Shown in pieces: positions 12,700-63,211 of a stretch of 64,000 nucleotides of DNA. The DNA is taken from assembly GCA_964583975.1 (NCBI GenBank), contig CAZOXU010000009.1, positions 3,195 through 67,194 on the forward strand, read 5' to 3'. The notes beneath the pieces are model-generated. The model made no database searches, was not told the origin of the DNA, and saw only the letters and a program-made list of their open reading frames with translations. Within the stretch, counting starts at the first letter, position 1. Each line of letters opens with the position of its first letter. The position numbers and the translations under genes were made by a program. The DNA is from an uncultured Planctomycetales bacterium (lineage in GTDB: Bacteria; Omnitrophota; Gorgyraeia; Zapsychrales; Fredricksoniimonadaceae).

Positions 12700-12727
12700 G
12701 AAATAACTTACAGAAGAGGAGTTAATT

Positions 12728-24499: not shown

Positions 24500-24548
24500 A
24501 GTTTGATTCTATTGGATTTTATCTTTATAGTAGATAAATAGATGAAGA

Positions 24549-24622: not shown

Positions 24623-24637
24623 TTTAGGAGGAAGGTT

Positions 24638-36642: not shown

Positions 36643-36644
36643 CA

Positions 36645-39800: not shown

Positions 39801-39807
39801 AGGTAGA

Positions 39808-43919: not shown

Positions 43920-43942
43920 GTTGGTAATATTAGGATGCGGTC

Positions 43943-44476
43943 ATGCACAAGTTATTCTTGATTGCTGTTTTTCTTTCAGCGGGTTTATTGATGGCGCATG
44001 CCAAGGGGGAAAATATGAATATTATAAAGGCCGGCAAAATTCGTATTTGGGATGTTAAAAGCAATTCTTATCAAGAAGTTGATAAGATTATTAAATCTGA
44101 TGCAGAATGGAAAAAGATTTTAACTCCCCAGCAATACGAAGTTACACGCGCGCATGGAACTGAGCGTGCTTTTTGTGGGCTTCCCACCAAAGATCATAAA
44201 AAAGGGATTTATAAATGTGTTGGCTGTAATACCGACCTTTTCAAGGCTGGTGAGAAATTTGAATCAGGCACAGGTTGGCCATCTTTTTGGCAGCCGCTCA
44301 ATGAAGCCAATGTCGGTTACACTGAAGATTTTGATTTTGGTATGCATCGTACTGAGGTGCATTGTGCTCGATGTGGAGGGCATTTAGGTCATGTGTTTGA
44401 TGATGGTCCTCCACCAACCGGTAAACGATATTGTATTAATTCAGTGGCGCTGAAATTTGTGCCGGATGGAAAATAG
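43943..44476 (+). CDS. msrB: Peptide-methionine (R)-S-oxide reductase MsrB, periplasmic (signal peptide)
   Basis: CxxC pairs, GTGWPSF and HLGHVFDDGP motifs. Confidence 0.85.
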   Translation: MHKLFLIAVFLSAGLLMAHAKGENMNIIKAGKIRIWDVKSNSYQEVDKIIKSDAEWKKILTPQQYEVTRAHGTERAFCGLPTKDHKKGIYKCVGCNTDLFKAGEKFESGTGWPSFWQPLNEANVGYTEDFDFGMHRTEVHCARCGGHLGHVFDDGPPPTGKRYCINSVALKFVPDGK

Positions 44477-44484
44477 GAATTCCT

Positions 44485-45099
44485 ATGCGGCTACCATTTT
44501 TATTTTTAGCATTATTAATATTTAGTACTGTATCGGTTCACGCCAAGGAGGAAGGTATGAAGCAGGATCAATTACAGAAAGCTACATTTGCAGGAGGATG
44601 CTTTTGGTGTATGCAACCTTTTTTTGATCGTCTTAAAGGAGTGAAGCAAAGTTTAGTAGGTTACACAGGCGGACATACCAATAATCCCACTTACGAAGAG
44701 GTTTCTATGGGCGATACGGGGCATGCAGAGGCCATTGAAATTACCTTTGATCCCAAAGAGACAAGCTATGAGCAATTGTTAAATATTTATTGGCGCAATA
44801 TTGATCCAACGGTTGAGAATGCCCAATTTGTAGATCATGGCACACAGTATCGAAGTGCTATTTTTTATCACAGTGAGGAGCAGAAGCGTTTAGCAGAGTT
44901 TTCTAAAAAAGAATTGGCTGATTCGGGTCGATTTGATAAACCAATCGTCACCCCCATTGTGCCTGCGACTAAATTTTATCCTGCCGAAGATTATCATCAG
45001 AAATACTATCAAAAAAGTCCTATCAGGTACAAGATGTATCATGACAATTCAGGCCGTGATGAGTTCTTGGAACATATTTGGGGTAAGCAGTCCCACTAG
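44485..45099 (+). CDS. msrA: Peptide-methionine (S)-S-oxide reductase MsrA, periplasmic (signal peptide)
   Basis: GCFWC active-site motif. 204 aa. Confidence 0.85.
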   Translation: MRLPFLFLALLIFSTVSVHAKEEGMKQDQLQKATFAGGCFWCMQPFFDRLKGVKQSLVGYTGGHTNNPTYEEVSMGDTGHAEAIEITFDPKETSYEQLLNIYWRNIDPTVENAQFVDHGTQYRSAIFYHSEEQKRLAEFSKKELADSGRFDKPIVTPIVPATKFYPAEDYHQKYYQKSPIRYKMYHDNSGRDEFLEHIWGKQSH

Positions 45100-46224: not shown

Positions 46225-47880
46225 TTGAAAAGACCATTCAGGTTTCTGTGTATTTTATCGATGGTTTTTGCTGTTTTTCTGCACCAATCCCCATTGCATG
46301 CTTTAGACGCTGCAATGCCTCTCGAATCGAAGAAAATATCTTTAGACTACAAGAATGCTGAATTGACCGATGTGCTCAAAGCCATGTCTTATTCTTACAA
46401 TCTTAATATCGTGGTGGCTAAGGACATTACCGGCAAAGTATCAGCCCAATTAAAAGACGTGACCGCTGAAGAAGCTTTAAATGCTATTTTGACCGGCAGC
46501 AGTTATGCCTATATGCGTAAAGGTGACATTATTTACGTCCAGTCTAAAGAAGAGATGGATCTGGTGACGGAAACCCTCGTTTTGAATTATATTCCCCTCG
46601 AACAAGCCCAAACGTTATTAAGTGGTGCTATCACTCGATTAAAAGCTAACATTCAGGTCAATAAAGATGCCAATGCTTTGGTGGTGACAACCAATCCAGG
46701 AGATTTAGAAAAATTAAAAGTGATTTTGCAGGGCATTGACGTTCCTCCGATTCAGGTCTTAATTGAAGCCCAGATCGTCGATATTAATAGATCTGATATT
46801 CAACAGATTGATAGCGCTGTTAGTCTGATTTATTCAGCTAATCAAGTGGGAGGGACGTTCTCCAAATTTAGTCCCAACGTTACAGCAGGATCTGCCTCTA
46901 ATACAGCAGCGACAAGCACATCTAACACTTCATCTTCATCCACATCTTCCACTTCAGGAGATCAGGGTGTGTTTTCTTTTGCTAATAACAATTATTCTCA
47001 AATGTCTATTACAGCCTTAGTTAATCAACATAAAGCACGTGTTATCGCTTCTCCGTCGATTGCAACTCTTAATGGCCATGAAGCTAGCATTGTGATTGGG
47101 GAGAAATATCCTGTTGTGACCTCAACGTCTTCGGCTGGAGGGACGGGTGGCAGCATTGTCAATCAAACTACCACATCTTATATCGATATTGGAACCAAGC
47201 TTAAAGTCACTCCTCGCGTTTCACCAGATGGTTGGATTACTATGAAAATTGAACCCGAAGTTTCTTCCGTGTTAGGTGTAACGTCCAATGGAAATCCTAA
47301 CATTGCGACCCGTTCAGCCAATACAGAGGTTCGGGTGAGAGATAATGAAACGATCGTGATAGGGGGCCTAAAAAGTAAAAGTGATTTGCGAGATAAAAAT
47401 GGTATTCCAGGCTTAAAAGATATCCCCATTCTTGGAGCTTTATTTCAAAGTCATAATAAATCCTTGGTTGACGGGGAATTGACTGTTTTAATTACACCAC
47501 ATGTCATCCCTATGGTCCATCCAGAGAAAGCAAAAAATCCTCCACCAAGGAAAGTTATGACAGGTGAAGATAGCGTACTGGTCCATAACATCTTGAATTA
47601 TATTGATACTCTCGAGGCAGATAGGTCTAAGGATCGGGCTAAAAATCTTTACCTAAGCGGGGAACAAATTAAAGCTTACAGAATGCTTTTGCAGGAATTT
47701 CCTGCTTCGGGTAAAGGAGATTATTGCCTTTATAGAATTGCTTTGAAATATGCTAAGGACTTTGGTAATTGCAAGGCAGCTAAAGAAACTTTTGCGGAGT
47801 TACAGGAGTTGTTTCCCACAAGTTCTTTTATTCCTGTGACAGAATCTTTGGTCGATGCTTGTACAGCTGTGCAGCTTTAA
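46225..47880 (+). CDS. pilQ: Type IV pilus secretin PilQ-like (TTG start)
   Basis: Signal peptide, N-terminal secretin-N domains, an S/T-rich linker, and a C-terminal secretin domain (ATLNGHEASIVIGEKYPV..., GGLKSK...IPILGALF). Confidence 0.8.
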   Translation: MKRPFRFLCILSMVFAVFLHQSPLHALDAAMPLESKKISLDYKNAELTDVLKAMSYSYNLNIVVAKDITGKVSAQLKDVTAEEALNAILTGSSYAYMRKGDIIYVQSKEEMDLVTETLVLNYIPLEQAQTLLSGAITRLKANIQVNKDANALVVTTNPGDLEKLKVILQGIDVPPIQVLIEAQIVDINRSDIQQIDSAVSLIYSANQVGGTFSKFSPNVTAGSASNTAATSTSNTSSSSTSSTSGDQGVFSFANNNYSQMSITALVNQHKARVIASPSIATLNGHEASIVIGEKYPVVTSTSSAGGTGGSIVNQTTTSYIDIGTKLKVTPRVSPDGWITMKIEPEVSSVLGVTSNGNPNIATRSANTEVRVRDNETIVIGGLKSKSDLRDKNGIPGLKDIPILGALFQSHNKSLVDGELTVLITPHVIPMVHPEKAKNPPPRKVMTGEDSVLVHNILNYIDTLEADRSKDRAKNLYLSGEQIKAYRMLLQEFPASGKGDYCLYRIALKYAKDFGNCKAAKETFAELQELFPTSSFIPVTESLVDACTAVQL

Positions 47881-47919
47881 GTAATGACTCTATAACGTAG
47901 AAACCCTAGAAAGATTTTT

Positions 47920-48297
47920 ATGACCGATCAAGTAAAGAAAAAGGTGCTGGTTGTTGATGATGATCCCATGATTGTGACTTTAATGGTTAAAACGTTAGAG
48001 TCTCTAGGTTTTGAAGTGCTAAAAGGGACTAATGGGGTCGAAGCATTAGCGATAGTTAAACAAACAATTCCTGATTTAATCATCCTTGATCAAATGATGC
48101 CTAAAATGGATGGTATAAAAGCCTGCGCTCTGCTCAAAGCAGATAAACGATATTTAAATATCCCGATCATTATGTTTACAGCCAGCGCCGATGAAGCTGA
48201 TAAGCAACTTAGTAAGCAGATGGGCGCCAATGAGTATTGTAATAAGCCTTTAAATGTGGCTGAGCTAAAACAAAAAATCGAACTATTGCTTAAATAA
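47920..48297 (+). CDS. Single-domain response regulator (PilH/PilG-like) within the pilus operon
   Basis: VVDDDP...IILDQMMPKMDG receiver motifs. Confidence 0.7.
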   Translation: MTDQVKKKVLVVDDDPMIVTLMVKTLESLGFEVLKGTNGVEALAIVKQTIPDLIILDQMMPKMDGIKACALLKADKRYLNIPIIMFTASADEADKQLSKQMGANEYCNKPLNVAELKQKIELLLK

Positions 48298-48308
48298 ACA
48301 AAATCGTT

Positions 48309-49934
48309 ATGAGTAATTACGTTAAAAAATCGATGGGAGAGTTATTGTTGGAAAAAGGCTACATCTCCGGGGCCCAATGGGAAGAGGTGCGTAGCGAACA
48401 ACAAAAAACCGGAGAATCGATTTTTAGAATATTGCCAAGACTAGGATTTATTACACAAGAAACCATGGTTGATTTTATTGCCGAACAAAGCGGGGTTACT
48501 CGACTTGATTTAGCTAGTATGATCATTGACCCTAAAACTGTTGAACTAGTACCTGAAGAGATGGCCCGCAAGCATCTGGTCATTCCTGTTTTAAAAATAG
48601 GAGGTTCTTTAACATGTGCCATGGTCGATGTTTTTAACATTTATATGCAAGATGAGTTAGCAGCAAAAACAGGTTTAACGATCGATCCGGCTATTGCTAC
48701 TGAGAATGAAATTACCAAAGCCATTAATCAGTTATACACAGTTAAAGGTGATGTGCAGGATATCATCAAATCTTTTGATGAAGCCAAATCTGAGAATAAT
48801 CAGACTGATGATGCTGAAGTTCATCGTTTGCAGGTGACTGGCGGGCAAGACGATGCTCCCGTGGTTAAATTTGTCAATTTGATGATTGTTCAGGCCGTTT
48901 CGGATGGTGCTTCCGATATTCATATTGAACCCGAAGAAAATACATTAGCCATCCGATTTCGTGTTGATGGGGTTTTACGTAAACAGACAGCTCCACCTAA
49001 GCAATTTCAAGCTGCGCTGATTTCTCGTATTAAGATTTTGGCTAAACTCGACATTTCTGAAACGCGTAAACCGCAAGATGGACGCATTCAAATTAAAATG
49101 GAAAATAAACGTGTCGACATTCGTGTGTCTTGTTTGCCGACGGTTTATGGGGAAAATCTTGTCTTAAGACTTTTGGATACCAGTAATATTCTCATCGGTC
49201 TTGAACAAATTGGTTTTGAGAAAGAAATTTTAGAGAAATATAAAAGTCTTTTGTTTAGACCTAATGGGATTGTGTTGGTGACGGGTCCTACAGGAAGTGG
49301 AAAAACAACAACCCTGTATTCATCTTTAAGTACCATCAATGATCCGAGCAAGTCCATTGTCACGATTGAAGATCCGGTGGAATACCGTTTACCTGGGATT
49401 CGCCAAACCCAGGTCAATCCAAAGGTTGATTTGACCTTTGCTAATGGATTGCGTTCTATTCTTAGACAAGATCCCAATGTAATCATGGTCGGGGAAATTC
49501 GTGACGTAGATACAGCGCAAATTGCCATTCAAGCTGCGTTAACAGGACACCTTGTATTAGCAACGCTGCATACTAATAATGCGGCCGGTGCTGTGACCCG
49601 TCTTTTGGATATTGGGGTAGAACCATTTTTATTGGCTTCCTCGATCATTGGAGTTTTAGCTCAACGTTTGGTGCGTTTAAAGTGTAAAGACTGTGCCGGT
49701 AAAGGTTGTAAAACTTGCGGTGAAACAGGCTATAAGGGCCGAACCAGCATTTTTGAATTACTTGTTTTTAATGAACAAATACGCGCTTTGACTTTAAAGA
49801 AAGCTTCGGCAGATGAAATTCACCGTTTGGCGGTTTCCGAAGGAATGAAAAGTATGCGCGATAATGGTATGGATAAGGTGGCTAAAGGACTTACAACCCA
49901 GGAAGAAATTATTAGGGTTACCCAATTAGAATAA
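48309..49934 (+). CDS. pilB: Type IV pilus assembly ATPase PilB (GspE family)
   Basis: N-terminal GSPII domain, Walker A GPTGSGKTTT, a tetracysteine motif (CKDCAGKGCKTC) and Asp/His boxes. Confidence 0.85.
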   Translation: MSNYVKKSMGELLLEKGYISGAQWEEVRSEQQKTGESIFRILPRLGFITQETMVDFIAEQSGVTRLDLASMIIDPKTVELVPEEMARKHLVIPVLKIGGSLTCAMVDVFNIYMQDELAAKTGLTIDPAIATENEITKAINQLYTVKGDVQDIIKSFDEAKSENNQTDDAEVHRLQVTGGQDDAPVVKFVNLMIVQAVSDGASDIHIEPEENTLAIRFRVDGVLRKQTAPPKQFQAALISRIKILAKLDISETRKPQDGRIQIKMENKRVDIRVSCLPTVYGENLVLRLLDTSNILIGLEQIGFEKEILEKYKSLLFRPNGIVLVTGPTGSGKTTTLYSSLSTINDPSKSIVTIEDPVEYRLPGIRQTQVNPKVDLTFANGLRSILRQDPNVIMVGEIRDVDTAQIAIQAALTGHLVLATLHTNNAAGAVTRLLDIGVEPFLLASSIIGVLAQRLVRLKCKDCAGKGCKTCGETGYKGRTSIFELLVFNEQIRALTLKKASADEIHRLAVSEGMKSMRDNGMDKVAKGLTTQEEIIRVTQLE

Positions 49935-49941
49935 TTTAACC

Positions 49942-51201
49942 ATGAGCAAATATTCTTATAAAGCCAGAAATAATGAAGGTCAGTCGGTCACAGGGATATT
50001 GGAAGCGACTTCTGAGCAAGAGGCTCTTTTTCAGTTAGGAAAGATGCAGTACACTCCTATTTCTATTGTACTTAACGAAACAGCTGCAGCATCTGGTAAA
50101 GAGCAGTCTAAGGGTTTTTGGGATTTTTCTTTTAGTTCTTTTGGTACTGAAACAAAGGTCAGCGTTAAAGATGTTATGGCGTTTTGTTCTAATCTTTCAA
50201 GTATGACGTCTGCCGGGGTACCGTTGTTGGGGGCGATCACAACCATTGCCGAGCAATTTCAAAATCCAACGATGACTAAGACTTTACGTAAGGTTGCTCA
50301 ATTAGTCTCGCAGGGATCTTCCTTCTCAGAGGCCTTGGCCATTTTCCCAAAAGTTTTTTCACCTTTCTTTGTCAGCATGGTGAAGGTAGGGGAAATGTCA
50401 GGTACCTTGGAAGAAACACTCAACGCTTTAAGTGTTTATTTGGAGAAACAAGAGCGTCTAAGACAAACAGTCCGAGGTATCTTAATTTATCCTTCTATTT
50501 TATTAGTGGTGGGAACAGCAGTCGTGGTTTTGATCGTAGTCTTTTTAATGCCTAAATTTGTGGATATCTTTACTAAAGCCGGTGTAGAGCTTCCTATTCC
50601 TACCAAAATGCTTTATGCTTTAAGTCTTTTTTTAAAGATGTATTGGATATGGACTGTTCTTACGATAGCTGCTTTGGTTTTTGGGATTAGAATGTCTTTT
50701 ATGAAAGAAAAAACGCGGGCACTGTGGGACCGTTTATTTATAAAATTGCCTTTGGTTGGAAGTCTTTTGATCAAAGTTCAGGTGGCCCGTTTTTGTAGAA
50801 CTTTAGGGATCATGGTGAATTCAGGGGTTTCTATTTTGGTCGCTTTGAACATGGTTAGACAAGTTTTAAGTAATGTTGTCTTTGTTGAAATTTTAAAAGA
50901 AGTTTATGATAGTGTGGAAAAAGGCGAAGGGATCCACAAGCCATTAATTCCTCGCAAAGAGATCCCCAAAGATGTGACCTATATGATCTCTGTAGGTGAA
51001 CAATCTGGTAATATTGGTCAAATGCTGAACAAAATAGCTGATTTTTATGAATCTAAGGTGGAATTTGAAGTTAAAGATCTTGTTACTTTGATTGAACCAA
51101 TATTTATTTGTATTTTAGGTGCTGTAGTTGGGGTTATTATGGCTTCCATGATTTTACCAATGTTTGACATGATTAAAACGATCGAAATGAAACATCATTA
51201 A
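49942..51201 (+). CDS. pilC: Type IV pilus inner-membrane platform protein PilC (GspF family)
   Basis: Two GspF repeats. About 419 aa with 3-4 TM. Confidence 0.8.
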   Translation: MSKYSYKARNNEGQSVTGILEATSEQEALFQLGKMQYTPISIVLNETAAASGKEQSKGFWDFSFSSFGTETKVSVKDVMAFCSNLSSMTSAGVPLLGAITTIAEQFQNPTMTKTLRKVAQLVSQGSSFSEALAIFPKVFSPFFVSMVKVGEMSGTLEETLNALSVYLEKQERLRQTVRGILIYPSILLVVGTAVVVLIVVFLMPKFVDIFTKAGVELPIPTKMLYALSLFLKMYWIWTVLTIAALVFGIRMSFMKEKTRALWDRLFIKLPLVGSLLIKVQVARFCRTLGIMVNSGVSILVALNMVRQVLSNVVFVEILKEVYDSVEKGEGIHKPLIPRKEIPKDVTYMISVGEQSGNIGQMLNKIADFYESKVEFEVKDLVTLIEPIFICILGAVVGVIMASMILPMFDMIKTIEMKHH

Positions 51202-51234
51202 ACCAAGAGTTTACAAAAAACAAAAGGAGATAAA

Positions 51235-51675
51235 ATGAAAAAAGGTTTTACTATATTGGAATTGTTGGTTGTTGTGTCGGTGTTGGTTATCCTGATTGGC
51301 ATAGCCATTCCAAGATTCAAGGGTATGCAAGATGCTGCAAGGGTAGCTCAGGCCAAGGGTGAATTACAAACCATGCAGTCTGCTGTTGAAACATATTATA
51401 TGAATGTGACACCAAAGGCTTACCCAGTAAACAGTGCAACGGTGGGTGCAAGCGTGTTATCTACAGCAACGCCACAGGTTATCACCACAACTCCTCCGTA
51501 TGATCCGTTTGCGGCAGCGAATGTGGAATACAATTACAAAGTAGCAGCTGACGGTAAGTACTATGTGCTTAGTTCTGTGGGAGCAGCTGGTACTGGTACA
51601 ACGAGTATTGTCAGTGGTGGGACAGTTACGATTGCTAACAATGCTTTATGTGTAACTAATGGTGGTGGTTGTTAA
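51235..51675 (+). CDS. pilA: Type IV (major) pilin, copy 1
   Basis: Prepilin leader MKKG/FTILELLVV (G-1, F+1, E+5). C-terminal disulfide loop CVTNGGGC. Confidence 0.8.
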   Translation: MKKGFTILELLVVVSVLVILIGIAIPRFKGMQDAARVAQAKGELQTMQSAVETYYMNVTPKAYPVNSATVGASVLSTATPQVITTTPPYDPFAAANVEYNYKVAADGKYYVLSSVGAAGTGTTSIVSGGTVTIANNALCVTNGGGC

Positions 51676-51701
51676 CTTTAATATTATTAACGGAGGATAA
51701 A

Positions 51702-52142
51702 ATGAAAAAAGGTTTTACTATATTGGAATTGTTGGTTGTTGTATCGGTGTTGGTTATCCTGATTGGTATAGCCATTCCAAGATTCAAAGGTATGCAAGAT
51801 GCTGCAAGGGTAGCTCAGGCCAAGGGTGAATTACAAACCATGCAGTCTGCTGTTGAAACATATTATATGAATGTGACACCAAAGGCTTACCCAGTAAACA
51901 GTGCAACGGTGGGTGCAAGTTTGTTATCAACCGCAACACCACAGGTTATCACCACAATTCCTCCGTATGATCCGTTTGCGGCATCGAATGTGGAATACAA
52001 CTACAAGAGATCTGCAGATGGTTATTATTATGTTCTAACTTCTGTTGGAGCAAGCGGCAATGGAACAACAACAATTGTCAGTGGTGGGACAGTTACGATT
52101 AGTAATAATGCTTTATGTGTAACTAATGGCGGTGGTTGTTAA
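51702..52142 (+). CDS. pilA: Type IV (major) pilin, copy 2. Tandem near-identical paralog.
   Basis: Same leader and ~90% identical to copy 1; differences cluster in the C-terminal half. Own GGAGGA RBS. I moved the start from 51669 to the MKKGF Met. Confidence 0.8.
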   Translation: MKKGFTILELLVVVSVLVILIGIAIPRFKGMQDAARVAQAKGELQTMQSAVETYYMNVTPKAYPVNSATVGASLLSTATPQVITTIPPYDPFAASNVEYNYKRSADGYYYVLTSVGASGNGTTTIVSGGTVTISNNALCVTNGGGC

Positions 52143-52151
52143 GCAAGGACA

Positions 52152-52523
52152 ATGAAAATTAGAAAAATTTTCAAAAGCAGAGGCTTTACTCTCTTGGAAA
52201 TTGTACTTTCCACCGTTCTCATTACGATTGGTGTGACTGCAGTTGTTCGAGTTATTTCAACAGGCATTTATACAGACAATGCTAGTGAAGGGAAAATCAT
52301 CGCGTTAAATTATGCCGTACAGAAGATGGAAGACCTATTAAATACTTCTTATAGTAGTCTTTCTTCTAGTTCAGATACGCCTACCACAGGTTTTACAAGA
52401 ACTTGGACAATCACTGATAATACAAATTATAAGACGCTCAAGGTGACAGTCAGTTGGTATTATAAAAGAGTTCAAATGTCGGTTAATTTAGCGAGCTATC
52501 TTGCCAATGTTACTACTTCCTAA
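52152..52523 (+). CDS. Minor (pseudo)pilin, PilV/PilE-like
   Basis: Leader ...KSRG/FTLLEIVL. Confidence 0.65.
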   Translation: MKIRKIFKSRGFTLLEIVLSTVLITIGVTAVVRVISTGIYTDNASEGKIIALNYAVQKMEDLLNTSYSSLSSSSDTPTTGFTRTWTITDNTNYKTLKVTVSWYYKRVQMSVNLASYLANVTTS

Positions 52524-54738
52524 TCGAATAAGAAACAAAGTAGGCTTTTCCTTGGTTGAAATTGTGGTGGTTATGGGTATGCTGGTTTTTTTAACAGTGT
52601 CCATAACCAAGGTTTTTACAGGGACCTTCCGAGCTTTTGGTTTTAGCCAAGACCGCGCTCAAGCAACTAATCGCATCTCCCTAGCATTTCAGAAAATGGT
52701 AGATGAACTCCAGCAGTCAGATGGAATTAAGTCCTGTGATGGTTTAAGTGTTACATTCTCCTTGGCAGGTTCTTTTTATAAATATCAAGTAAGCTCAAAT
52801 CAATTACAAAGAATAGATCCTAACAATAGAAAAGAAATATTAGTTAACTATGTGAAAACTCCTGGTTCTGGCGGGGCATATTCTTTGCCATGGTTGTGTT
52901 CAGGAGGAACGGTAAGGATTGATTTGACTACCTATAATCCTGCTTTTAGTTCAACCTTGACAACTAATAATACATCACATTTTGTAACTACTGTTACACC
53001 TAGAGGAATTCCTTATGGTTTAGTGTATTGGTGGAAGTTAAATGAAGGCACAGATACAACACTTTATGATTTAGGTGGCAGATACCCAAGTGGGAATATG
53101 GATGGTATTCCAGCATATTTAACGGGTGATTCTGGGGGACCCGCTTGGACTACGGGGATAGCAAATGGGGCTTTAACTTTTACAGCATCTAATAATGACT
53201 ATCTTTATTTGAATGAACCTATTGGGGGTTATGGAGAGCTTAATGGGCATAATTCTTGGACTGTAAGTTTTTGGTTTAAGGCGACTACTCTTAAAGCATA
53301 TGCTAGTGGGCAATCTCCAGGAATGTTCATTGCTTCTAGAGGAGCGCCAGCGGGAATATTTATATCCACAGATAATTGGATATATCGGGGTGCAGATGAT
53401 GCGGATAATACAGTCGCAACAACGACAAGTGTGGGCTGTTGGTATCATTTGGCTATGAGCTTTGATGCTTCATCTGGTAGTGTGATGGTTTATAAGAATG
53501 GCGATCTTTTAGGTACCATCACCCATCAGGATTCATTGGAAAATAGTGGGTATTATTTCGATACCATTGGAACTGATTATACGAACTATTTTAATGGAGT
53601 TATGGATGATATACGTTTTTATAATTATGTTTTAAGTAATGATGAGATAGCCAAGCTATCTCGATACTTGCCCTATTATAGTTCTTCGGCCCTTGCTATT
53701 GCTGATATTTATACAGATGCTAATAATTGCGGAGCTATCGGCACCGTCTGTGCAGGGGGTACTTCATGCTATAGCGGAAAATGTTGTACAACAGGTTACA
53801 CCAATTGCAGCACTACTGGTGGACTCTGTGGAACTTGCTATTCGATGGCTAGCAGCTCCACTAATTGTGGTAATTGTGGCAACGCTTGTGCGGGAGGTAA
53901 AAGTTGTTCAGATGGGTATTGCTGTACTACAGGTTTGACCAATTGTTTCACGGGAGTAAATGCTTGTCAAAATTTGACCAATGATTCTAGTAATTGTGGA
54001 TCTTGCGGGAATGCTTGTGGGGTAGGAACTCCAACATGTTGTTCTTCTTCTTGTGTGAATACTACAACTAATTCAAGTAACTGTGGATCTTGTGGGAATG
54101 CTTGTACTTCAGGAACAACGCCTGCCTGTTGTAGCTCATCGTGTGTTGACGAATATGTGAATACAAGTAATTGTGGTGCATGTGGTACAACTTGTGGTGG
54201 GGGGACTCCATATTGTTGCCATGGATCGTGTAGTGCTCTGGCTCCTACAGGTACTGTCTGTACAGTAAATGGAGAATGTTGTAGTAACGTATGTTCATGT
54301 TTTACCTCTGGAACTAAGGTTTTACTGATTAATGGCAAAAAGATTGCCATTGAAAAACTTAAGGTGGGAGACGTATTGTTGGGTTCAAATAGAACTCATA
54401 ATAAAGTCATTCGACTAGACGTAAGACCTAAAGAAGTAAGAAAAATTTATTCTTTCAATGATGGGCGTTATTTTGTGACGGAAAATCATCCCTTTATGAC
54501 CAAAGAAGGATGGAAGGCCCTTAATCCTCAATTGGCCCAATTAGAACAAAGCCAGATTAAGATAGGTCAACTTAATATTGGAGATGAGATTGTAACCCAG
54601 AAAGGTTTTGTTAAACTTAAAAAGATTAAATTTAAAACTATAAATACAGTTGTGTACAATCCTCAATTAGATGGCAGTCATGATTATTATGCAGATGGTT
54701 TTTTAGTGCACAATAAAGGAGCTAAACATTGCACATAA
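52501..54738 (+). CDS. Large pilin-like protein: prepilin N-terminus, LamG/ConA-like domain, tandem Cys-rich modules, and a C-terminal Hint (intein/hedgehog-type) domain
   Basis: Leader ...NKVG/FSLVEIVVV. LamG signature ...DDIRFYNYVLSNDEIAKL. At least four repeats of NCGxCGNAC..G....CC..SC. Hint begins CFTSGTKVLLINGK..., has block-B-like VTENHPF, and ends GFLVHN plus 6 aa. Confidence 0.7.
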   Translation: MPMLLLPNRIRNKVGFSLVEIVVVMGMLVFLTVSITKVFTGTFRAFGFSQDRAQATNRISLAFQKMVDELQQSDGIKSCDGLSVTFSLAGSFYKYQVSSNQLQRIDPNNRKEILVNYVKTPGSGGAYSLPWLCSGGTVRIDLTTYNPAFSSTLTTNNTSHFVTTVTPRGIPYGLVYWWKLNEGTDTTLYDLGGRYPSGNMDGIPAYLTGDSGGPAWTTGIANGALTFTASNNDYLYLNEPIGGYGELNGHNSWTVSFWFKATTLKAYASGQSPGMFIASRGAPAGIFISTDNWIYRGADDADNTVATTTSVGCWYHLAMSFDASSGSVMVYKNGDLLGTITHQDSLENSGYYFDTIGTDYTNYFNGVMDDIRFYNYVLSNDEIAKLSRYLPYYSSSALAIADIYTDANNCGAIGTVCAGGTSCYSGKCCTTGYTNCSTTGGLCGTCYSMASSSTNCGNCGNACAGGKSCSDGYCCTTGLTNCFTGVNACQNLTNDSSNCGSCGNACGVGTPTCCSSSCVNTTTNSSNCGSCGNACTSGTTPACCSSSCVDEYVNTSNCGACGTTCGGGTPYCCHGSCSALAPTGTVCTVNGECCSNVCSCFTSGTKVLLINGKKIAIEKLKVGDVLLGSNRTHNKVIRLDVRPKEVRKIYSFNDGRYFVTENHPFMTKEGWKALNPQLAQLEQSQIKIGQLNIGDEIVTQKGFVKLKKIKFKTINTVVYNPQLDGSHDYYADGFLVHNKGAKHCT

Positions 54739-54753
54739 TATTTTAATATTAGT

Positions 54754-55947
54754 ATGAAGAAAATGGCTATTTTGCATAAAAATGGAATACTTTTAGTTTC
54801 GCTATCAATCATGATGACACTCATGACCTTGGCCATGGTTTTTATTCAAAGGGTTTTAGGGACAGCTAAAACAGCTCAGGCTGAGGTGGATCGAATACAA
54901 GCTTTATATGCAGCTGAAGCAGGCTTACAAAAAGCTATTTATTATCTTAACTATACAGCTCCAGATAGTACAATAGGAGGGTCATATAGAATTGGTACTG
55001 CTTCTAGTACGGCCTGTCCTTCAACAGGAGGATCAGCAGGTTTGTCAGAAACATTAACCATATCTACTGGCAATACAGCGACCTATACTATGTGCATTGA
55101 AAACTCAGGTTACAATGTTCAAATTACTTCAACAGGCACGGTCGTTAGCGGTATTAATGGAAATGTGAGCCGAACAGTTCAAGCTAAAACATCACAACCA
55201 CTTCTTGCAACAACCAGTGGGGGAGTCAATGCTGCCAATTTATTTGCACGTTGGGATTTGGCTTTGATAGTTCCTGGTTTAGGAACAACAGATGTTAGTG
55301 GTAATGGTTATACAGCATGGTTTGGGGGTAGTCCTACATCGTCTACAGCAGCATTAAATGATGGGGTAACACATAATACTTTAACTTTTGATTCAGCTGC
55401 GTATGCTTTGACCTACACACCAGCGATAAAAGGTTCATTTACAGTTACTGGATGGATCAAGCCAACAAATGCTTGCCTGGCAGGTGGAGCTGCAATTGGT
55501 TTTTTTGGAAATTCCTATGCAGCAAGTTCATTGGGGATGGGGTATCATCTAGTTTTTGATAATACAGTATTAGCTTTAAAGATTGAAGCCTCCAATGGAA
55601 CAACTTATTCTTGTTCAAAAAGTGTTGCAGCATGGAACAATACAACATGGTATCACTTTGCAGCAGTGTATGATAATACAATTCAGTATGGAACAATGTA
55701 TCTTAATGGTGTAGCTGGTACATCGGCGGCTATGAAGAATTCTTATCGCCATTCTTGGTATTATTATCTTGGTGTAGGTGTTTTTTGGGGTAATGATCCA
55801 GATACGCCATATACCAATAAGTTTTCTGGTTCTTTAGCAGATCTTCGAATTTATGATCGAGCTTTAAATGCGAATGAGATTGCACAAATCTATAATGGTT
55901 ATGGTTCATCTATCAAAATGTTAAAAGGATCGTTTAAGGAATTATAA
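54754..55947 (+). CDS. PilX-like minor pilin with a LamG/ConA-like lectin domain (putative tip adhesin)
   Basis: N-terminal hydrophobic pilin-like helix (HKNG/ILLVS...). C-terminal LamG signature SLADLRIYDRALNANEIAQIYNG. Confidence 0.6.
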   Translation: MKKMAILHKNGILLVSLSIMMTLMTLAMVFIQRVLGTAKTAQAEVDRIQALYAAEAGLQKAIYYLNYTAPDSTIGGSYRIGTASSTACPSTGGSAGLSETLTISTGNTATYTMCIENSGYNVQITSTGTVVSGINGNVSRTVQAKTSQPLLATTSGGVNAANLFARWDLALIVPGLGTTDVSGNGYTAWFGGSPTSSTAALNDGVTHNTLTFDSAAYALTYTPAIKGSFTVTGWIKPTNACLAGGAAIGFFGNSYAASSLGMGYHLVFDNTVLALKIEASNGTTYSCSKSVAAWNNTTWYHFAAVYDNTIQYGTMYLNGVAGTSAAMKNSYRHSWYYYLGVGVFWGNDPDTPYTNKFSGSLADLRIYDRALNANEIAQIYNGYGSSIKMLKGSFKEL

Positions 55948-55948
55948 T

Positions 55949-57625
55949 ATGGCAGTGTCGATTAATAATAGATCGGTCATAGGGATTGACATTGATGCTA
56001 CTAGCATCAATGTGGTGCAGCGAATCTCTGCCCAAGGTCAAGTTAGGATTACAAAACTTGTCATTGAGAAAATCCTTTTTGAACAAAATAAAACTAAAGA
56101 AGCTGTCATTGTTGAGGCGCTTGCTAGGGCCGTTGCGAAGTTTAAGATTCAGAATTCAGATGTCATTTGTACCATATGCGACCAGAAATTTATCTTAGAT
56201 CACATCACCTTGCCTGTGATGCCCCCCGAAGAGCTTGCTCAGGCTGTTAAATTACAAGCCAGCAATTCTCAACACTACCCCATCGATAATCCTGTTTATG
56301 ATTTTGAAGTTCAAGGACGGATCATGGATAAGGGGGTTGAGAAAAACAATGTAAAATTAGCTGCTCTGGCGAAAATTTCTTTAGACAATTTTATTAATCG
56401 ATTCAAATTGCCTGTCAATGATGTTACCGGACAATTAAGAAAATTATTACGTGTTGATAGCTTGATGGGTTTAAACATTGCTCGTGTGATTCCTCTTTCT
56501 TTAGCAATCGGTAATATTGTTCAGTATTCCAAGAATTCAAAAGTGGTTGCTGTGTTCTATATGGGATCATCTAATGCTGAGTTGAATATCTATCGAGAAA
56601 TGAAGTTAGAATCTTCTAGAAAGATTAATGTTAATGGCAGTGATTTTACCAAGGCTTTAACCGGCGCTTTGTTTTCTGACAGCGGAAAGACAGAATTAAA
56701 CATCGCTGAAGCTGAGAATCTCAAAAAAGAATATGGTATTCCAACTGCTGGAGATAATTTCTTAATTAGAGGAAAGATTACAGCTAATCAGGCGCTGTCA
56801 TTGCTGCGACCTCGAGTAGAACAGTTGAGTCGGGAAATTAGCCGCTCTTTTGATTATTATTATGATCGAAATCAGGTTAAGAAAATAGACGAGATCGTAT
56901 TAATGGGTGAGGCTGCCCATCTTAAGAGATTAAATGAAGTTTTAAATGCTGAACTTGGAATTCCTGTGGTCGTGGGCAATCCTTTAGAAGGGTTGAATGT
57001 TTCTGATGAGGCGGCTTCTCAAATGAATGCAGAGAACATCCAATCTCTTATACCTGCACTGGGCGCATCTTTAGCAGATCCATCCACTGGGATTAATCTT
57101 CTTCCTGCAGATTTAAGGAATGTTGAGAAAAAATTCAAAGAGCGAATTTGGATGGTTTTGACAGGTTTGGCCATTGTAGGCATATCCCTAGCTTTTTGTT
57201 TGGTGTTATTTATGCAATGCCTAATCACTGGGCAGCAGCTTGCTAAATCCAAGAAAGCATATCAAGATACGACCATAAAGATTAAAGATTTGAAAAATAG
57301 ACTTTATCTCGAACGTGATATTAAACATCGTATGAAAATAGGCGCATTTTTAATGAATTTAAGCCATTTGCCTAGCAGGGTGAGCTTAACGCAGTTAAAA
57401 ATGGAAAATGGTAATTTGGAATTATTTGGAATGGTCGGTGCGCAGAGCGCTGATCCTAAAGTGATATTGGATGAATTAGTTCGGGAAATTAGCAAGAATG
57501 CTTTTTATGATGTCAAAGTGGCATCTGTGAAAGGTGATGAATCTAAGGATGAATTCTTAGAGTTTGTCATTAAGGGGAATTACAAAATGGAGAAATACAC
57601 GCATGAAGATCCAGTTCAAAATTGA
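55949..57625 (+). CDS. PilM-PilN fusion protein (actin-like ATPase PilM fused to the bitopic PilN)
   Basis: PilM-like region (residues ~1-375). Then the PilN hallmark INLLPADLR followed by a TM helix and a periplasmic coiled/ferredoxin-like part. Confidence 0.7.
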   Translation: MAVSINNRSVIGIDIDATSINVVQRISAQGQVRITKLVIEKILFEQNKTKEAVIVEALARAVAKFKIQNSDVICTICDQKFILDHITLPVMPPEELAQAVKLQASNSQHYPIDNPVYDFEVQGRIMDKGVEKNNVKLAALAKISLDNFINRFKLPVNDVTGQLRKLLRVDSLMGLNIARVIPLSLAIGNIVQYSKNSKVVAVFYMGSSNAELNIYREMKLESSRKINVNGSDFTKALTGALFSDSGKTELNIAEAENLKKEYGIPTAGDNFLIRGKITANQALSLLRPRVEQLSREISRSFDYYYDRNQVKKIDEIVLMGEAAHLKRLNEVLNAELGIPVVVGNPLEGLNVSDEAASQMNAENIQSLIPALGASLADPSTGINLLPADLRNVEKKFKERIWMVLTGLAIVGISLAFCLVLFMQCLITGQQLAKSKKAYQDTTIKIKDLKNRLYLERDIKHRMKIGAFLMNLSHLPSRVSLTQLKMENGNLELFGMVGAQSADPKVILDELVREISKNAFYDVKVASVKGDESKDEFLEFVIKGNYKMEKYTHEDPVQN

Positions 57626-58121
57626 GGAGTATTTTCCATACCTTATTGTGCTAGGGTTTTTGTTTTTTGTTTTGGTGATTGTTTTTGTTAGCAAACCCAT
57701 GCTCAAAAATATTAAACAAAATAAGGAACAGTCTCAAGAATATATCAAAGAGGCAGCATCTTTAAACAAATTGTCACAGGAAGGTCAAAACAAGTCTGCT
57801 ATTAATTTAATTACTGAACAACAAGGCAGAGAGCTCCAAAGTAAGATCAAGAACATTGCTGTTAAAAACAAGATTTACTTAAGTTTCAAGAATTTGGGTG
57901 TGGTGGGTGAGGTTCAGATGACCTCAGATTTATATAAATTGTTAATGTTCGAAGGTAAGGCTTCAGGAAACTATAAGAATTTTGCTACTTTTTTAACTGA
58001 AATTAGAAACATTTCAGAAGGATTTATTGACGTAGAGAAAATAGCGATTATTGGTGATTCGACAGCGACTTCCAATATTACAGCACAGATAACATTGTCC
58101 ATTTTTATAGCAAACACATGA
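57603..58121 (+). CDS. PilO-like pilus assembly protein (TM plus coiled coil)
   Basis: Position and architecture. I set the start at the MKIQF Met. Confidence 0.5.
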   Translation: MKIQFKIEEYFPYLIVLGFLFFVLVIVFVSKPMLKNIKQNKEQSQEYIKEAASLNKLSQEGQNKSAINLITEQQGRELQSKIKNIAVKNKIYLSFKNLGVVGEVQMTSDLYKLLMFEGKASGNYKNFATFLTEIRNISEGFIDVEKIAIIGDSTATSNITAQITLSIFIANT

Positions 58122-58684
58122 TAAAGATAAACAAAACCCTCATTGTCTATATTGTTTTGATCGTTATTTTTGTTGGTGGTGTGGTGTCTATTTTTTCAAA
58201 TTCTGGTTATAAAAGTGCTCGGGTAACGCCTCCGGGGGCAGATAGAGAATTAAGAGATTTAATGTCAGTTCAGGAGGATGAATTAGATGTTTCATCTAAG
58301 GGGAGTACCAGAAATCCTTTTGTCATCTCCTATGTTAAAGAAGAAAGTGGTTTTAAATTCTTAGGAATATTCTGGGGTTCTGAAACTCCCAGTGTAATTA
58401 TTAATAATAAAGTTTATGGTCTGGGAGATGCGGTTGATGGGATGAAAATTACCGAGATTAAAGATGGAGAGCTTGTCTTAACGGACGAGTCTGGTGCGCA
58501 AAAGATTTTTTCATTGAAAGAGAATGCTCCTGTAACTGAACCTAAGCTTGAGGATAATGCTACTGCACAAGCTGATCAAAAGAATCCTAATCGATTACCA
58601 TTAAATAAAAGAAAACCTAATCAATTGCCTAGGTCTTTAAATCCAGCTGATTTTGTTCCTGCGAATGAATTAGCACCTAAGTAA
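58118..58684 (+). CDS. PilP-like pilus assembly protein (N-terminal TM/anchor plus beta domain)
   Basis: Position after the pilMNO-like genes. Membrane anchor. Low sequence specificity. Confidence 0.4.
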   Translation: MIKINKTLIVYIVLIVIFVGGVVSIFSNSGYKSARVTPPGADRELRDLMSVQEDELDVSSKGSTRNPFVISYVKEESGFKFLGIFWGSETPSVIINNKVYGLGDAVDGMKITEIKDGELVLTDESGAQKIFSLKENAPVTEPKLEDNATAQADQKNPNRLPLNKRKPNQLPRSLNPADFVPANELAPK

Positions 58685-59154: not shown

Positions 59155-59214
59155 GATCCTTCGGCTACGCCTCAGGATGACAGAAGTAACAAAAATAGGG
59201 AGCTGTCCCTAATT
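59155..59214. repeat. GC-rich intergenic repeat element, copy C, plus a terminator-like hairpin between convergent genes
   Basis: ATCCT-TCGGCTACGCCTC-AGGAT stem-loop, with base pairs covarying relative to copy B. AGGGAGCTGTCCCT hairpin; on the minus strand it is followed by ATTTTTGTT. Confidence 0.5.
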
Positions 59215-60699
59215 TCCAATTAAAGGGGAAGTCTGCAGAGCTTCTAGGAAAACGTCGACAATGTCTTGGTCGATTTCATTTTTCATAGTGCGCAGAATAT
59301 GCATGGCCTCGAGTTTGGTTTTCTTGGCACGGTAAGGGCGTTCAGTGGTAAGGGCATCATAGACATCGGCTACGGTTAGAATACGCACCAGGGGAGAAAT
59401 TTCTTCAGCTTTTAATCTGTCCGGATAACCAGTACCATCTAGTTTCTCATGGTGATGTCGGATAATATCGCATAAAGGCTGTAGCGAATGGACAGGTTTG
59501 ATAATGCTTTCGCCAATTTCAGGATGACGCCGCATAATAATCCATTCCTCAGGGTTTAACTCGCCTTCTTTACGTAGAATTTCATCAGGAATGCCAATTT
59601 TCCCTAAATCATGAAGTTTAGCTGCATCACGCAGGGTGTTTAAATCCTCAGTATCAAGCCCTAGTTTTTTACCAATTAAAGTGACATAATCGGCTACACG
59701 ATCAAGGTGTCCTCGAGAATATCTGTCTTTTGCATCAACAGCTAAAGCCAAAGCCGAAATTGTTTCGAAATAGGTTTTTTCAATATCGTTGTTAAGTTTG
59801 GAGTTCTCCAAAGCAACTGCTGTTTGGGAAGCAAGATTAAAAACTAGATTGATATCATCTTTGGAAAAATCTTCATGATTACCTTCAGCTTTTGTAATGG
59901 TTAAAATGCCATTGGCCTTATCACGATAGACCAAGGGAACGCAAAGGATGGTTTCACCAAAGAGTTTAGAGAGTTGAGGGTTATTTAAGTCTTGTAAGAA
60001 TATTCCAGAGACCGTGGTGGGTTGTTTCTTTTCTAAAGTTTTTAAGAAAGGAGAACCTTGAAAGAGTTTAATGTGTAGCGGGTCATGAATTTGAGGGTCA
60101 TAATCGCTGCCGTAAACGGTATTAATGACAAGGTCTGTTTTCCGATCATTTAAAAGCATAAGTGTAGAAACTTTGCCATTAAGAGCATTGGTCATGGTCT
60201 CAAGAATGAGATTGAGGAAGGTGTCGATCTTTTCCATGTTGGAAATGCCTTGCCCAACTTTCTCCATCACCGATTGCAGTGTTTTTTTAGCTGCTTCTAA
60301 GCTTTTAATATTATCTTCAAGTTGATTAGTGACTACTGAAAAAGAACGGCTCAGTACCGCAATTTCGTTTTCTCCCTGATTTAGCTGTTTCATGGTTTCA
60401 GGTGAAAGGACTTTCTCCAAGGACTTACGATTTTGCTCAGTAATGCTAATGACTTTCTTAAGCATCGCGCGCATGGAGTAATAACCTACAAAAACCCCCA
60501 AAGCCATAAAAAACATGGCTAATCTAAAGTTTTCCTCGGATAAATCAATATGCCCGCTCTTATTGTGTTGAAAATAAATAAAATAGAGTAAGGCCATTGG
60601 AACGATCGAAGCCAAAAGAAAAAGAATCGTAAATTTACGAATGATAGAGGCGTCTTCGAAGGAAGAAATATAAAAGAGTTTTTTGTCGTTTTTGTTCAT
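59209..60699 (-). CDS. HD-GYP c-di-GMP phosphodiesterase with an N-terminal 2-TM sensor region and a GAF domain
   Basis: HD motif (HDLGKIGIP), HHEKLDGTGYP (GYP), GAF-like region (residues 160-300), and two N-terminal TM helices. Confidence 0.75.
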   Translation of the reverse strand: MNKNDKKLFYISSFEDASIIRKFTILFLLASIVPMALLYFIYFQHNKSGHIDLSEENFRLAMFFMALGVFVGYYSMRAMLKKVISITEQNRKSLEKVLSPETMKQLNQGENEIAVLSRSFSVVTNQLEDNIKSLEAAKKTLQSVMEKVGQGISNMEKIDTFLNLILETMTNALNGKVSTLMLLNDRKTDLVINTVYGSDYDPQIHDPLHIKLFQGSPFLKTLEKKQPTTVSGIFLQDLNNPQLSKLFGETILCVPLVYRDKANGILTITKAEGNHEDFSKDDINLVFNLASQTAVALENSKLNNDIEKTYFETISALALAVDAKDRYSRGHLDRVADYVTLIGKKLGLDTEDLNTLRDAAKLHDLGKIGIPDEILRKEGELNPEEWIIMRRHPEIGESIIKPVHSLQPLCDIIRHHHEKLDGTGYPDRLKAEEISPLVRILTVADVYDALTTERPYRAKKTKLEAMHILRTMKNEIDQDIVDVFLEALQTSPLIGN

Positions 60700-62509: not shown

Positions 62510-63211
62510 ATGGTTGATTATATAAGAGATATTTTCTCCAGTGGTTCTCTTGGAAAAATTATGATTGCTGTGGCCCTAGCCGGGGCTGTGGCTTCGTTGA
62601 CCTCCTGCACCATTGCTCGATTGCCCGTACTGTTGGGACTTGTCAGTAATAGAGGAAAATCACAACCGCGTGAATTTCATCTGGCCCTGGCTTTCTGTGG
62701 CGGTTTAATTATTACCTATACTATCTTTGGTTTCTTATTTGGTTTAGTGGCCCATTTAGCTTCTGGGCTTATAGGGATTAGTTCGTACCTTTATTTAACT
62801 ATGGGGGTACTTATGCTAATAGGCGGTGCTTTTTTTGCTGGATTGATCCCTCATTCAATCGGATGGTTCAATGCACGCTGTGAGCAGATGGTTAAAGGAG
62901 GCAGGACAGTACCTTCAGCCTTTGGTTTTGGGATTGTTTTTGCTTTTTTAGAGATGCCAGCGTGTGCTTGTTGCGGCTCAGTGATGCTGTTGATTGCCAG
63001 TATGGTTGCTATAAAAGGTTCTCTAATCTTTTCAGGAGTAGTTTTCTTTAGCTTTGCCGTAGGTCAAAGCCTGCCAATTTTAATTTTAGGGTTCTCAGCT
63101 GGTTTGCTTAAAAATGTTATTCCTATAACTCAAAAACTTGAAGGGATAGTAAGTTTTGTAGTTGGAAATATTTTGATGATCACAGGTATCTTTTTAATTT
63201 TAATTTCTTAA
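62510..63211 (+). CDS. Polytopic membrane protein with TM-embedded Cys motifs (DsbD_2/CcdA-like or metal-transport-like)
   Basis: LTSCTIARLP in TM1 and EMPACACCGSV in a later TM. About 6 TM. Confidence 0.4.
   Translation: MVDYIRDIFSSGSLGKIMIAVALAGAVASLTSCTIARLPVLLGLVSNRGKSQPREFHLALAFCGGLIITYTIFGFLFGLVAHLASGLIGISSYLYLTMGVLMLIGGAFFAGLIPHSIGWFNARCEQMVKGGRTVPSAFGFGIVFAFLEMPACACCGSVMLLIASMVAIKGSLIFSGVVFFSFAVGQSLPILILGFSAGLLKNVIPITQKLEGIVSFVVGNILMITGIFLILIS

Follow-up and report, generated by a model that had tools for sequence, protein, structure and literature searches.

We analysed a stretch of 64,000 nucleotides (the window) from contig CAZOXU010000009.1 of an uncultured bacterium of the Omnitrophota lineage (assembly GCA_964583975.1), and in particular the gene at positions 52501-54738 on its forward strand. 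The product of this gene, as judged from its sequence, is a minor, modular type IV pilin, whose C-terminal domain is by profile and structural model a non-degenerate Hint domain of the A-type-like bacterial intein-like (BIL) kind. Comparison with homologues from metagenomes indicates that the joining of pilins to Hint domains is a recurrent natural architecture, and not a one-off. The reading we favour, and consider probable from the catalytic residues and from the behaviour of studied relatives, is that the Hint would excise itself in the periplasm via a thioester at Ser599-Cys600, and that the processed pilin would then be incorporated into the pilus.

The original prediction, made from the letters of the DNA, had described the gene as a single open reading frame (ORF), and we indeed found one uninterrupted frame of 745 codons with a TTG start. 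An in-frame ATG at 52507 would give a protein of 743 residues, the form in which the same protein is present in public collections (P0001), and is likely the true start. The original prediction had also allowed that the frame might turn out to be two genes separated by an unrecognised frameshift. However, the frame is continuous, and a Logan contig from an independent assembly pipeline (L001; 3754 nt, SRR12487046) spans the whole gene and, over the full length of that contig, is identical to the window. A chimera made by one assembler, or a frameshift, is thus very unlikely. The protein is built, from the N to the C terminus, of a prepilin leader, a pilin module, a LamG/concanavalin A (ConA)-like domain, five NCG-type Cys-rich modules, the Hint and a seven-residue tail, with 43 cysteines in all.

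The Hint domain covers residues 600-738 (139 residues; 54298-54714, + strand). Six Pfam models of the Hint clan (Hom_end_hint, Vint, PT-HINT, Hint, Hint_2 and Intein_splicing) match it with E-values from 7.6e-6 to 0.12 and jointly cover both of its halves; these sub-threshold matches alone are suggestive, not proof. A sequence search of the PDB found 2LWY, the BIL domain of Clostridium thermocellum, over the full length (E 2.9e-5). The profile built from 16 close relatives (17 sequences) matched BUBL1 BIL2 (E 1.2e-15), 2LWY (5.9e-11) and the gp41-1 mini-intein (1e-9). An AlphaFold2 model of residues 590-745, calculated from an alignment of close relatives, had a pLDDT of 91.6 and a pTM of 0.86, and all of the top 50 Foldseek matches of this model in the PDB were proteins of the HINT fold (BILs, inteins, Hedgehog and Vint). 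BUBL BIL2 ranked first (E 2e-10, TM 0.77), followed by gp41-1, the Ssp DnaB mini-intein and 2LWY, with Hedgehog (1AT0) and Vint lower. The model of the full-length protein again gave Hint matches, alternating with LamG/ConA-like ones. The profile and fold comparisons that the original prediction had proposed for residues 600-745 thus both came out on the side of a Hint.

All catalytic residues expected of a Hint are in place. The position-1 nucleophile is Cys600 (54298-54300). The block-B TxxH motif is T660-E-N-H663 within VTENHPF, with Thr660 at 54478-54480 and His663 at 54487-54489, and the domain closes with His737 (54709-54711) and Asn738 (54712-54714). These residues had been anticipated in the original prediction, which had, however, counted six residues after the domain; the tail is KGAKHCT, seven residues, with Lys739 at +1 and Cys744 at +6, and together with the TAA stop codon it takes up 54715-54738 (+). 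In an alignment of 224 complete Hint copies drawn from an exhaustive homologue search (described below), Cys1 is conserved in 99%, the block-B Thr in 94% and His in 100%, and the terminal His and Asn in 95% and 97%; the target matches all of these. Of the positions conserved in at least 80% of copies there are 25, and at every one the target agrees with the consensus. This bears on the idea that the domain does not react at all and stays on as a binding or structural module at the end of the Cys-rich stalk. Non-catalytic Hint-like folds exist (the AXH module matched weakly here), and Cys600 could be disulfide-bonded in the periplasm, but the presence of every catalytic residue in the target, each conserved in 94-100% of the 224 copies, is unexpected for a purely structural domain, and we regard such a role as very unlikely.

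We compared the domain with the known kinds of Hint. A-type BIL domains are recognised by a terminal His-Asn (PMC7765530) and by the lack of a Cys, Ser or Thr nucleophile at +1 (PMC7664689). By sequence, the target Hint is of this A-type-like kind, because it ends in His-Asn, is followed by Lys at +1, belongs to a non-conserved exported host protein, leaves no room for a homing endonuclease and has no sterol- or adduct-recognition region. With the A-type BIL domains (Amitai et al. 2003; 2LWY) it shares the Hint fold, Cys1, the block-B TxxH, the terminal His-Asn and the missing Cys/Ser/Thr at +1, and the C-terminal regions of the target and 2LWY align over 'VYN...H.Y.A.G.LVHN', although the overall identity is only ~23%. 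A-type BIL domains are seated in variable regions of non-conserved secreted proteins; the same applies here, where the orthologues differ in the number of Cys-rich modules and are without the Hint. What sets the subfamily of the target apart from A-type BILs is the strong conservation of Lys at +1, the Cys that is often found downstream and the occurrence in tandem arrays. Its host here is a type IV pilin, and no such host is named in the BIL literature that we searched. The best solved match by both profile and fold, BUBL1 BIL2 (PDB 6Y75/6TMM), also has no classical +1 nucleophile, but is eukaryotic, cytoplasmic, located between ubiquitin-like domains of a polyubiquitin-like locus of Tetrahymena thermophila and ~21% identical to the target.

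Other members of the superfamily fit less well. Hedgehog/Hog proteins resemble the target in that a secreted functional N-terminal part is followed by a C-terminal Hint, whose thioester-forming first Cys releases it. However, the model matched Hedgehog 1AT0 (E 2.5e-5, TM 0.59) well below the BILs and mini-inteins, the Hog model PF01079 scored 18.3 bits against a cut-off of 29.7 (E 1.8e-3), and the target, unlike Hog domains, ends in His-Asn and is followed by only seven residues, without a sterol- or adduct-recognition region. A canonical (class 1) intein is likewise a poor description, given Lys at +1, a C-extein of seven residues and no space for a homing endonuclease in 139 residues. The orthologues stop ~20 residues before the Hint, which also counts against class 1 intein insertion into a conserved host protein.

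The PT-HINT domains of polymorphic toxins (MafB, CdiA/FhaB-type and Rhs) are, like the target, BIL-type Hints on secreted bacterial surface proteins, and some members of the target's family have Cys-rich C-exteins of 40-130 residues that could be released as in those systems. The PT-HINT model PF07591 matched the target with 19.9 bits against a cut-off of 27.7 (E 9.6e-4). In contrast to the toxins, only seven residues and no toxin domain follow the Hint, there is no immunity gene, and the next gene encodes a PilX-like LamG pilin; we therefore rejected a toxin-releasing PT-HINT. That the gene belongs to such a toxin system, or is an assembly chimera or a fusion of genes, is highly improbable, even though it comes from a metagenome assembly and has the weak PF07591 match. 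Besides the continuous frame and the identical independent assembly, the same junction of Cys-rich modules with a Hint recurs in P0016, P0045 and P0062, among others, from other samples.

The assignment of the N-terminal part to the type IV pilins rests on the conservation of motifs, on the operon context, on two PilT-like ATPases in the window and on a pilin-like fold of moderate confidence. The N terminus reads MPMLLLPNRIRNKVG|FSLVEIVVVMGMLVF, with the predicted cleavage site between Gly15 and Phe16 and FSLVEIVVV following it. A short basic leader ending in Gly (residues 1-15; 52501-52545, +), a hydrophobic stretch and a Glu at position 5 of the mature chain (E20) make up a class III signal peptide. 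Within the motif RNKVG/FSLVE (the slash marks the predicted cleavage site), G15, F16, L18 and E20 are invariant in three orthologues, as are N12 and K13 of the leader; with the surrounding type IV pilus operon, this bears out the prepilin leader proposed originally. The Pfam N_methyl model matched with an E-value of 0.41 only. The pilin module (residues 16-175; 52546-53025, +), supported by the invariant residues and AlphaFold, is predicted to comprise a hydrophobic N-terminal helix, an alpha-1C helix and a beta-sheet. The full-length AlphaFold model places a helix at 51-72 and strands at 75-144, with a pLDDT of ~80 for residues 61-120 and below 50 for the N-terminal helix; its mean pLDDT is 64, the LamG jelly roll and the Hint being confident and the Cys-rich stalk disordered or uncertain. 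NCBIfam gave weak matches of the module to prepilin-peptidase-dependent proteins. The top PDB fold matches of the full-length model were mostly Hint and LamG proteins, with no pilin among them, and a PDB sequence search with residues 1-400 gave no significant match.

The pilin module is followed by a jelly roll of the LamG/ConA-like type at 53026-53664 (+), with the Pfam core at residues 246-384 (nt 53236-53652). Laminin_G_3 (PF13385) matched this core with 65.8 bits (E 6.5e-18; cut-off 27.6), and the fold resembles carbohydrate-binding domain 4 of AbnA, the lectin-like domains of clostridial neurotoxin Hc and a pentraxin, so that the LamG domain noticed from the letters alone stands. Between it and the Hint lies a Cys-rich stalk with 38 Cys (53725-54297, +), supported by Stig1 and MXAN_6577-like matches, by parsing and by DNA repeats. 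Tandem Cys-rich modules had been foreseen as at least four of ~35 residues; their presence was confirmed, but there are five, two of 43-46 residues (409-454 and 455-497) and three of 29-30 (498-526, 527-556 and 557-586). The stalk is closed, directly before the Hint, by a 13-residue CC mini-module, CTVNGECCSNVCS (residues 587-599). Pfam Stig1 matched residues 486-539 above threshold (E 7e-13); the MXAN_6577-like NCBIfam model matched the stalk with an E-value of 4.5e-14, far under its 100-bit cut-off. The three short modules can also be seen in the DNA, where the predicted tandem repeats were found as copies at 53984, 54071 and 54161, 71-72% identical and spaced by 87-90 nt; Tandem Repeats Finder did not detect these module repeats, though a separate repeat search found them.

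The architecture up to the end of the stalk is that of a modular type IV pilin (Raynaud et al. 2021), in which functional modules, probably displayed at the tip, are grafted to the C terminus of a pilin module. Streptococcus sanguinis PilC is such a modular pilin with a ConA-like lectin module; the target chain instead ends in a predicted self-processing domain.

Only three orthologues (P0002, P0003 and P0004; 45-54% identity) were found in 5.8 billion protein clusters. All three end after the Cys-rich modules, at a point equivalent to about residue 578 of the target. P0002 lies in an operon of the same order, with the gene for the LamG pilin 4 nt after it; the stop codon of P0003 is followed by the start of the PilX-like gene 26 nt later; and the stop codon of P0004 lies 36 nt before the end of the contig. 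An end without the Hint in the same pilus operon is therefore conclusive for P0002 and P0003, and probable for P0004. It follows that residues 579-745 (linker, mini-module, Hint and tail) were added in the lineage of the window, and that the Hint, by this comparison, is a lineage-specific, accessory addition. A mini-module of the same C..C..CC..C type also precedes the Hint in P0045, P0049 and P0050, which suggests that mini-module and Hint were transferred as a cassette. At third codon positions the GC content (GC3) is the same inside the Hint segment as elsewhere in the gene, so the Hint is not a very recent foreign insert. Sec-signal Cys-rich proteins ending in the same Hint and a short tail are also encoded at L004:2199-3482 (= L005/L102) and L008:28-1248, and P0062 and P0045 are of the same type. 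The neighbourhoods of the L004/L008-type genes are unrelated (glmS, L27 and a methylase), and the cassette is thus not confined to pilus operons.

To see how far the family extends, residues 590-745 were used in an exhaustive phmmer search against 1.84 billion representatives (50% clustering). It yielded 4208 proteins at E<=1e-3, of which 1497 reached E<=1e-10 and 114 reached E<=1e-30. We tallied the best 150 matches together with those found earlier, 163 proteins with 280 Hint copies. Cys is found at position 1 in 238 of 241 copies and the terminal His-Asn in 244 of 256. Lys occupies +1 in 205 of 256 copies (80%), including those in which the chain stops right there. In 142 of 219 copies there is a Cys within +1 to +8, most often at +4 (the target has it at +6), against a background Cys frequency of 2.2%. 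The conserved Lys at +1 and the enriched Cys at +2 to +7 may represent an amine or thiol acceptor, or a redox trap formed with Cys1. The hosts are mostly Sec-signal or Cys-rich extracellular proteins, and 48 of 147 end no more than 10 residues after the Hint. Tandem Hints, 2-7 copies separated by linkers of a few residues, occur in 74 proteins. These arrays are often in giant proteins (P0032, of 4119 aa with 5 copies; P0033, P0034, P0065 with 7 copies, P0038 and P0155), with linkers of 2-6 residues such as HN/KGGS/CF, where slashes mark the domain borders.

The nearest relatives of the target Hint lie mostly in pilin-type proteins. Of ~30 distinct copies with at least 54% identity (54-70%), 17 are in pilin, pseudopilin or Flp-leader proteins. 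One group comprises homologues of the major pilins of the window that are interrupted by a Hint (P0071, P0067, P0068, P0017 and P0029, and genes in L090, L091, L096, L098-L100 and L103); P0071 is 59% identical to the window major pilins. Their insertion site is fixed, ...YYVISSVGPNGxxG/C[FL]...LVHN/x...GVV..G.DDICVTNGxGC, and precedes both the last strand and the disulfide loop at the C terminus. L091 (1-4438) carries five such genes in 4.4 kb, for example at 681-1565 and 1611-2501, and the one in L090 is at 11973-12881. The +1 residue of the interrupted pilins varies (A, I, V, P, R, N, T, S or K), and what follows it stays pilin-like. By their sequence, these Hints look like intein-like elements in pilins. 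A C-extein that is still pilin-like is under selection, which implies that the Hint is either spliced out without a +1 nucleophile or kept in place as an inserted domain, and makes simple cleavage insufficient as an account of the whole family. Other pilus-type hosts include P0050, a 1327-residue fn3 pseudopilin; the N_methyl-positive P0074; P0107 and P0126, pilin-leader proteins that end exactly at the Lys after His-Asn; the TadE-positive P0040 and P0134; and the Flp-like P0057 and P0073, the former (L094) adjoining PilB, PilC, PilM and secretin.

The distribution of the family can also be read as that of a selfish or neutral passenger, with no adaptive role in the pilus, which would spread by recombination between Cys-rich modules and be harmless through self-excision. 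The absence of the Hint from the three orthologues is in keeping with this, as are the many unrelated hosts and the arrays of 2-7 copies of the same subclade, and the mini-module within the added residues 579-745 that is common to P0045, P0049 and P0050. But no homing endonuclease or other known mobility device accompanies the domain, and both the strong enrichment of pilus proteins among the nearest relatives and the arrays of pilin paralogues, which keep the Hint at one site with intact catalytic residues, argue for selection. We think a mere passenger unlikely, with the reservation that it overlaps mechanistically with the reading that we favour, as both involve self-excision.

Self-excision followed by incorporation of the processed pilin would, in our favoured reading, proceed as follows. 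The leader would be cleaved after insertion of the protein into the membrane, with the C-terminal modules exposed and folded in the periplasm. Cys600 would attack the carbonyl of Ser599, and the N-S acyl shift would produce a thioester; cyclization of Asn738 would release KGAKHCT. As +1 is Lys and not Cys, Ser or Thr, the thioester would be resolved mainly by water, as reported for BIL domains, which lack the +1 nucleophile and yield mainly N- and C-cleaved products (PMC7664689, PMC7765530). The Hint would thus remove itself and leave a mature pilin of 584 residues (16-599), ending in Ser599 and bearing the lectin and the stalk. In a minority of molecules an amine could instead link the Ser599 end back to the heptapeptide. 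Once processed, the pilin would prime or cap the pilus, probably at the tip together with the PilV-like and PilX-like proteins, with lectin and stalk exposed. The Hint itself would be accessory, either as a removable C-terminal pro-domain or as a self-removing and tolerated passenger, carried by domain shuffling from one pilus or Cys-rich secreted protein to another.

Several points weigh against this reading. Activity, its timing and the choice between cleavage and ligation are judged here from catalytic residues and relatives. No single Pfam Hint model reaches its gathering score on the target (the best gave 26.5 bits versus 32.1), the pilin fold is modelled at moderate confidence only, and among the ORFs of at least 150 codons in the window there is no gene for a prepilin peptidase (peptidase A24). 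Cys600 directly follows 38 disulfide-forming Cys in an oxidising compartment and could become locked into a disulfide, to Cys744 for instance; with 19 probable disulfides beside Cys600, Cys744 at +6 could act as a redox trap. Finally, the retention of Lys at +1 even in proteins that end with it directly after His-Asn, and the selection on the C-extein of the Hint-interrupted pilins, suggest that hydrolysis is perhaps not the whole story.

A rival reading is covalent ligation, in which the thioester would be resolved in trans by an amine or another nucleophile, joining Ser599 to a pilus subunit, to the envelope or to a molecule of a target cell, as an ATP-independent extracellular 'harpoon' or cross-link. 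The closest solved relative offers a precedent: for BUBL1 BIL2 of Tetrahymena, the depositors report that the epsilon-amine of a Lys becomes joined by an isopeptide bond to the C terminus of the N-extein, and that the N-extein can be conjugated to different substrates (PMC8616854). A paper on the C. thermocellum BIL is titled, in the reference list of PMC7664689, as dealing with ligation without nucleophilic side chains. Lys at +1 in 80% of family copies, also when terminal, and the attachment of the Hint to an adhesin-type pilin would suit such chemistry as well. Yet the sequence points to no acceptor, cleavage products reportedly predominate with BIL domains (PMC7664689), the orthologues function without a Hint, and water would probably resolve a periplasmic thioester before the tip meets its target, barring a redox or conformational trap. 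Taken together, we consider ligation quite unlikely. By analogy with BUBL BIL2, the Hint might arm the C terminus of the adhesin with a thioester for transfer to an amine, with the interrupted major-pilin paralogues of related metagenomes as parts of the same system; this further proposal seems to us likewise quite unlikely. Our preference thus stays with periplasmic self-excision, and a mundane, self-removing role of the Hint is the most likely outcome; the pairing of Hint and pilus subunit as such would surprise pilus specialists.

In the current view, type IV pili acquire new functions when binding modules are grafted to their pilins, and to our knowledge covalent or self-processing chemistry has not so far been part of the picture of these pili. 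Gram-positive sortase pili do use isopeptide and thioester bonds, and Omnitrophota are suspected to attach to other cells. If the Hint is active, the pilus subunits of this lineage would be matured by protein autoprocessing, and perhaps also spliced or ligated. If ligation were true, type IV pili would possess an ATP-independent extracellular protein-ligation chemistry, by which pilus subunits could be cross-linked or the tip bonded covalently to the surface of a host or prey. With more than 4000 representatives (50% clustering), Lys at +1 and tandem arrays, the family is a large and uncharacterised one for intein and BIL research. Pilus assembly and adhesion provide a clear biological read-out for it, and it possibly contains a natural ligation domain suited to an oxidising extracellular setting.

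We searched the literature for earlier descriptions. A pilin with PF13385 (LamG) is the commonest modular-pilin architecture, with 229 proteins in the InterPro survey of Raynaud et al. 2021 (PMC8179133, Dataset S1). The same dataset contains one protein with a pilin and PF07591 (PT-HINT), and Hint and intein are absent from the main text (PMC8179133). The original prediction was aware of no described pilus subunit with a Hint; we found no studied case either, but the pairing had been catalogued once. Full-text searches, with most subscription journals outside their coverage, returned no natural case of a Hint, intein or BIL with a pilin, and we found no description of Hint-interrupted major pilins. 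The LamG pilin is accordingly ordinary, and the Hint, A-type-BIL-like by sequence, is a member of a known superfamily; new are their combination and the tie of a whole Hint subclade to pilus subunits.

The gene is located in a co-directional type IV pilus cluster with secretin, PilB, PilC, major pilins and PilM, and lies between PilV/GspI-like and PilX-like genes (Pfam, NCBIfam and ORF list). The upstream part of the operon (46225-52523, all +) encodes a secretin (46225-47880), a response regulator (47920-48297), a PilB/GspE ATPase (48309-49934), PilC/GspF (49942-51201), two GspG/PilA-type major pilins (51235-51675 and 51702-52142) and a PilV/GspI-like minor pilin (52152-52523). The two major-pilin genes share 91% identity in DNA, and their proteins 92%; each protein closes with CVTNGGGC and lacks a Hint. 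Downstream (54754-58684, +; Pfam) follow the second minor pilin with LamG that had been predicted at 54754-55947, which proved to be PilX-like (Laminin_G_3 E 7e-19, PilX_N weak), then PilM(-N) (55949-57625; PilM_2 E 4e-23) and two small membrane proteins (57564-58121 and 58118-58684; ORF list/Pfam).

The target gene and the gene at 54754 share a reading frame, with one TAA and five codons between them (54736-54756), and the P0002 contig is similar. We considered readthrough of the stop codon at 54736 into the next gene, which would turn the Hint into an intein between two pilins, and rejected it, because the product of the downstream gene carries a PilX-type N-terminal helix of its own, because the same frame is expected by chance one time in three, and because the P0003 locus has the same separate downstream gene without any Hint. 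We judge the shared frame to be chance.

The closest operons in GTDB species representatives are those of Candidatus Omnitrophota metagenome-assembled genomes (MAGs), with 49-59% identity of PilB, which makes for a weak placement. The PilB relatives in the GTDB species genomes showed neither a Hint in the surrounding 10 kb nor any homologue of the N-terminal part of the target, and scanning these genomes with the orthologue alignment (A1) gave no relative.

Elsewhere in the window, two adjacent genes for PilT/PilU-like ATPases (T2SSE, 346 and 384 aa; 32630-34823, -) suggest that the pilus is retractile. Just upstream of the secretin gene, at 42846-45099, lie a DsbD/CcdA-type membrane protein fused to thioredoxin, then MsrB and MsrA, and a second DsbD_TM protein is encoded downstream (62510-63211); periplasmic thiol-redox machinery thus adjoins the operon of a pilin with 43 Cys and a thiol-dependent type of Hint. 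Directly after the pilus operon, on the opposite strand, is a gene for a protein with GAF and HD-GYP-type (HD_5) domains (59209-60699, -), which may point to control by cyclic-di-GMP. Four ORFs, 70-3525, 19715-20872 (-), 24542-25201 and 3594-4142 (1151, 385, 219 and 182 aa), went without a match in Pfam at E<=1e-5, and the last three also at E<=1e-3. Pumps of many Proteobacteria, of a Geomonas and of a Verrucomicrobium share 74-77% identity with the AcrB-type RND pump at 36645-39800. For the pilus genes, identity to anything in the species genomes is only ~50%, a contrast that suggests horizontal transfer of the efflux operon (35443-41217).

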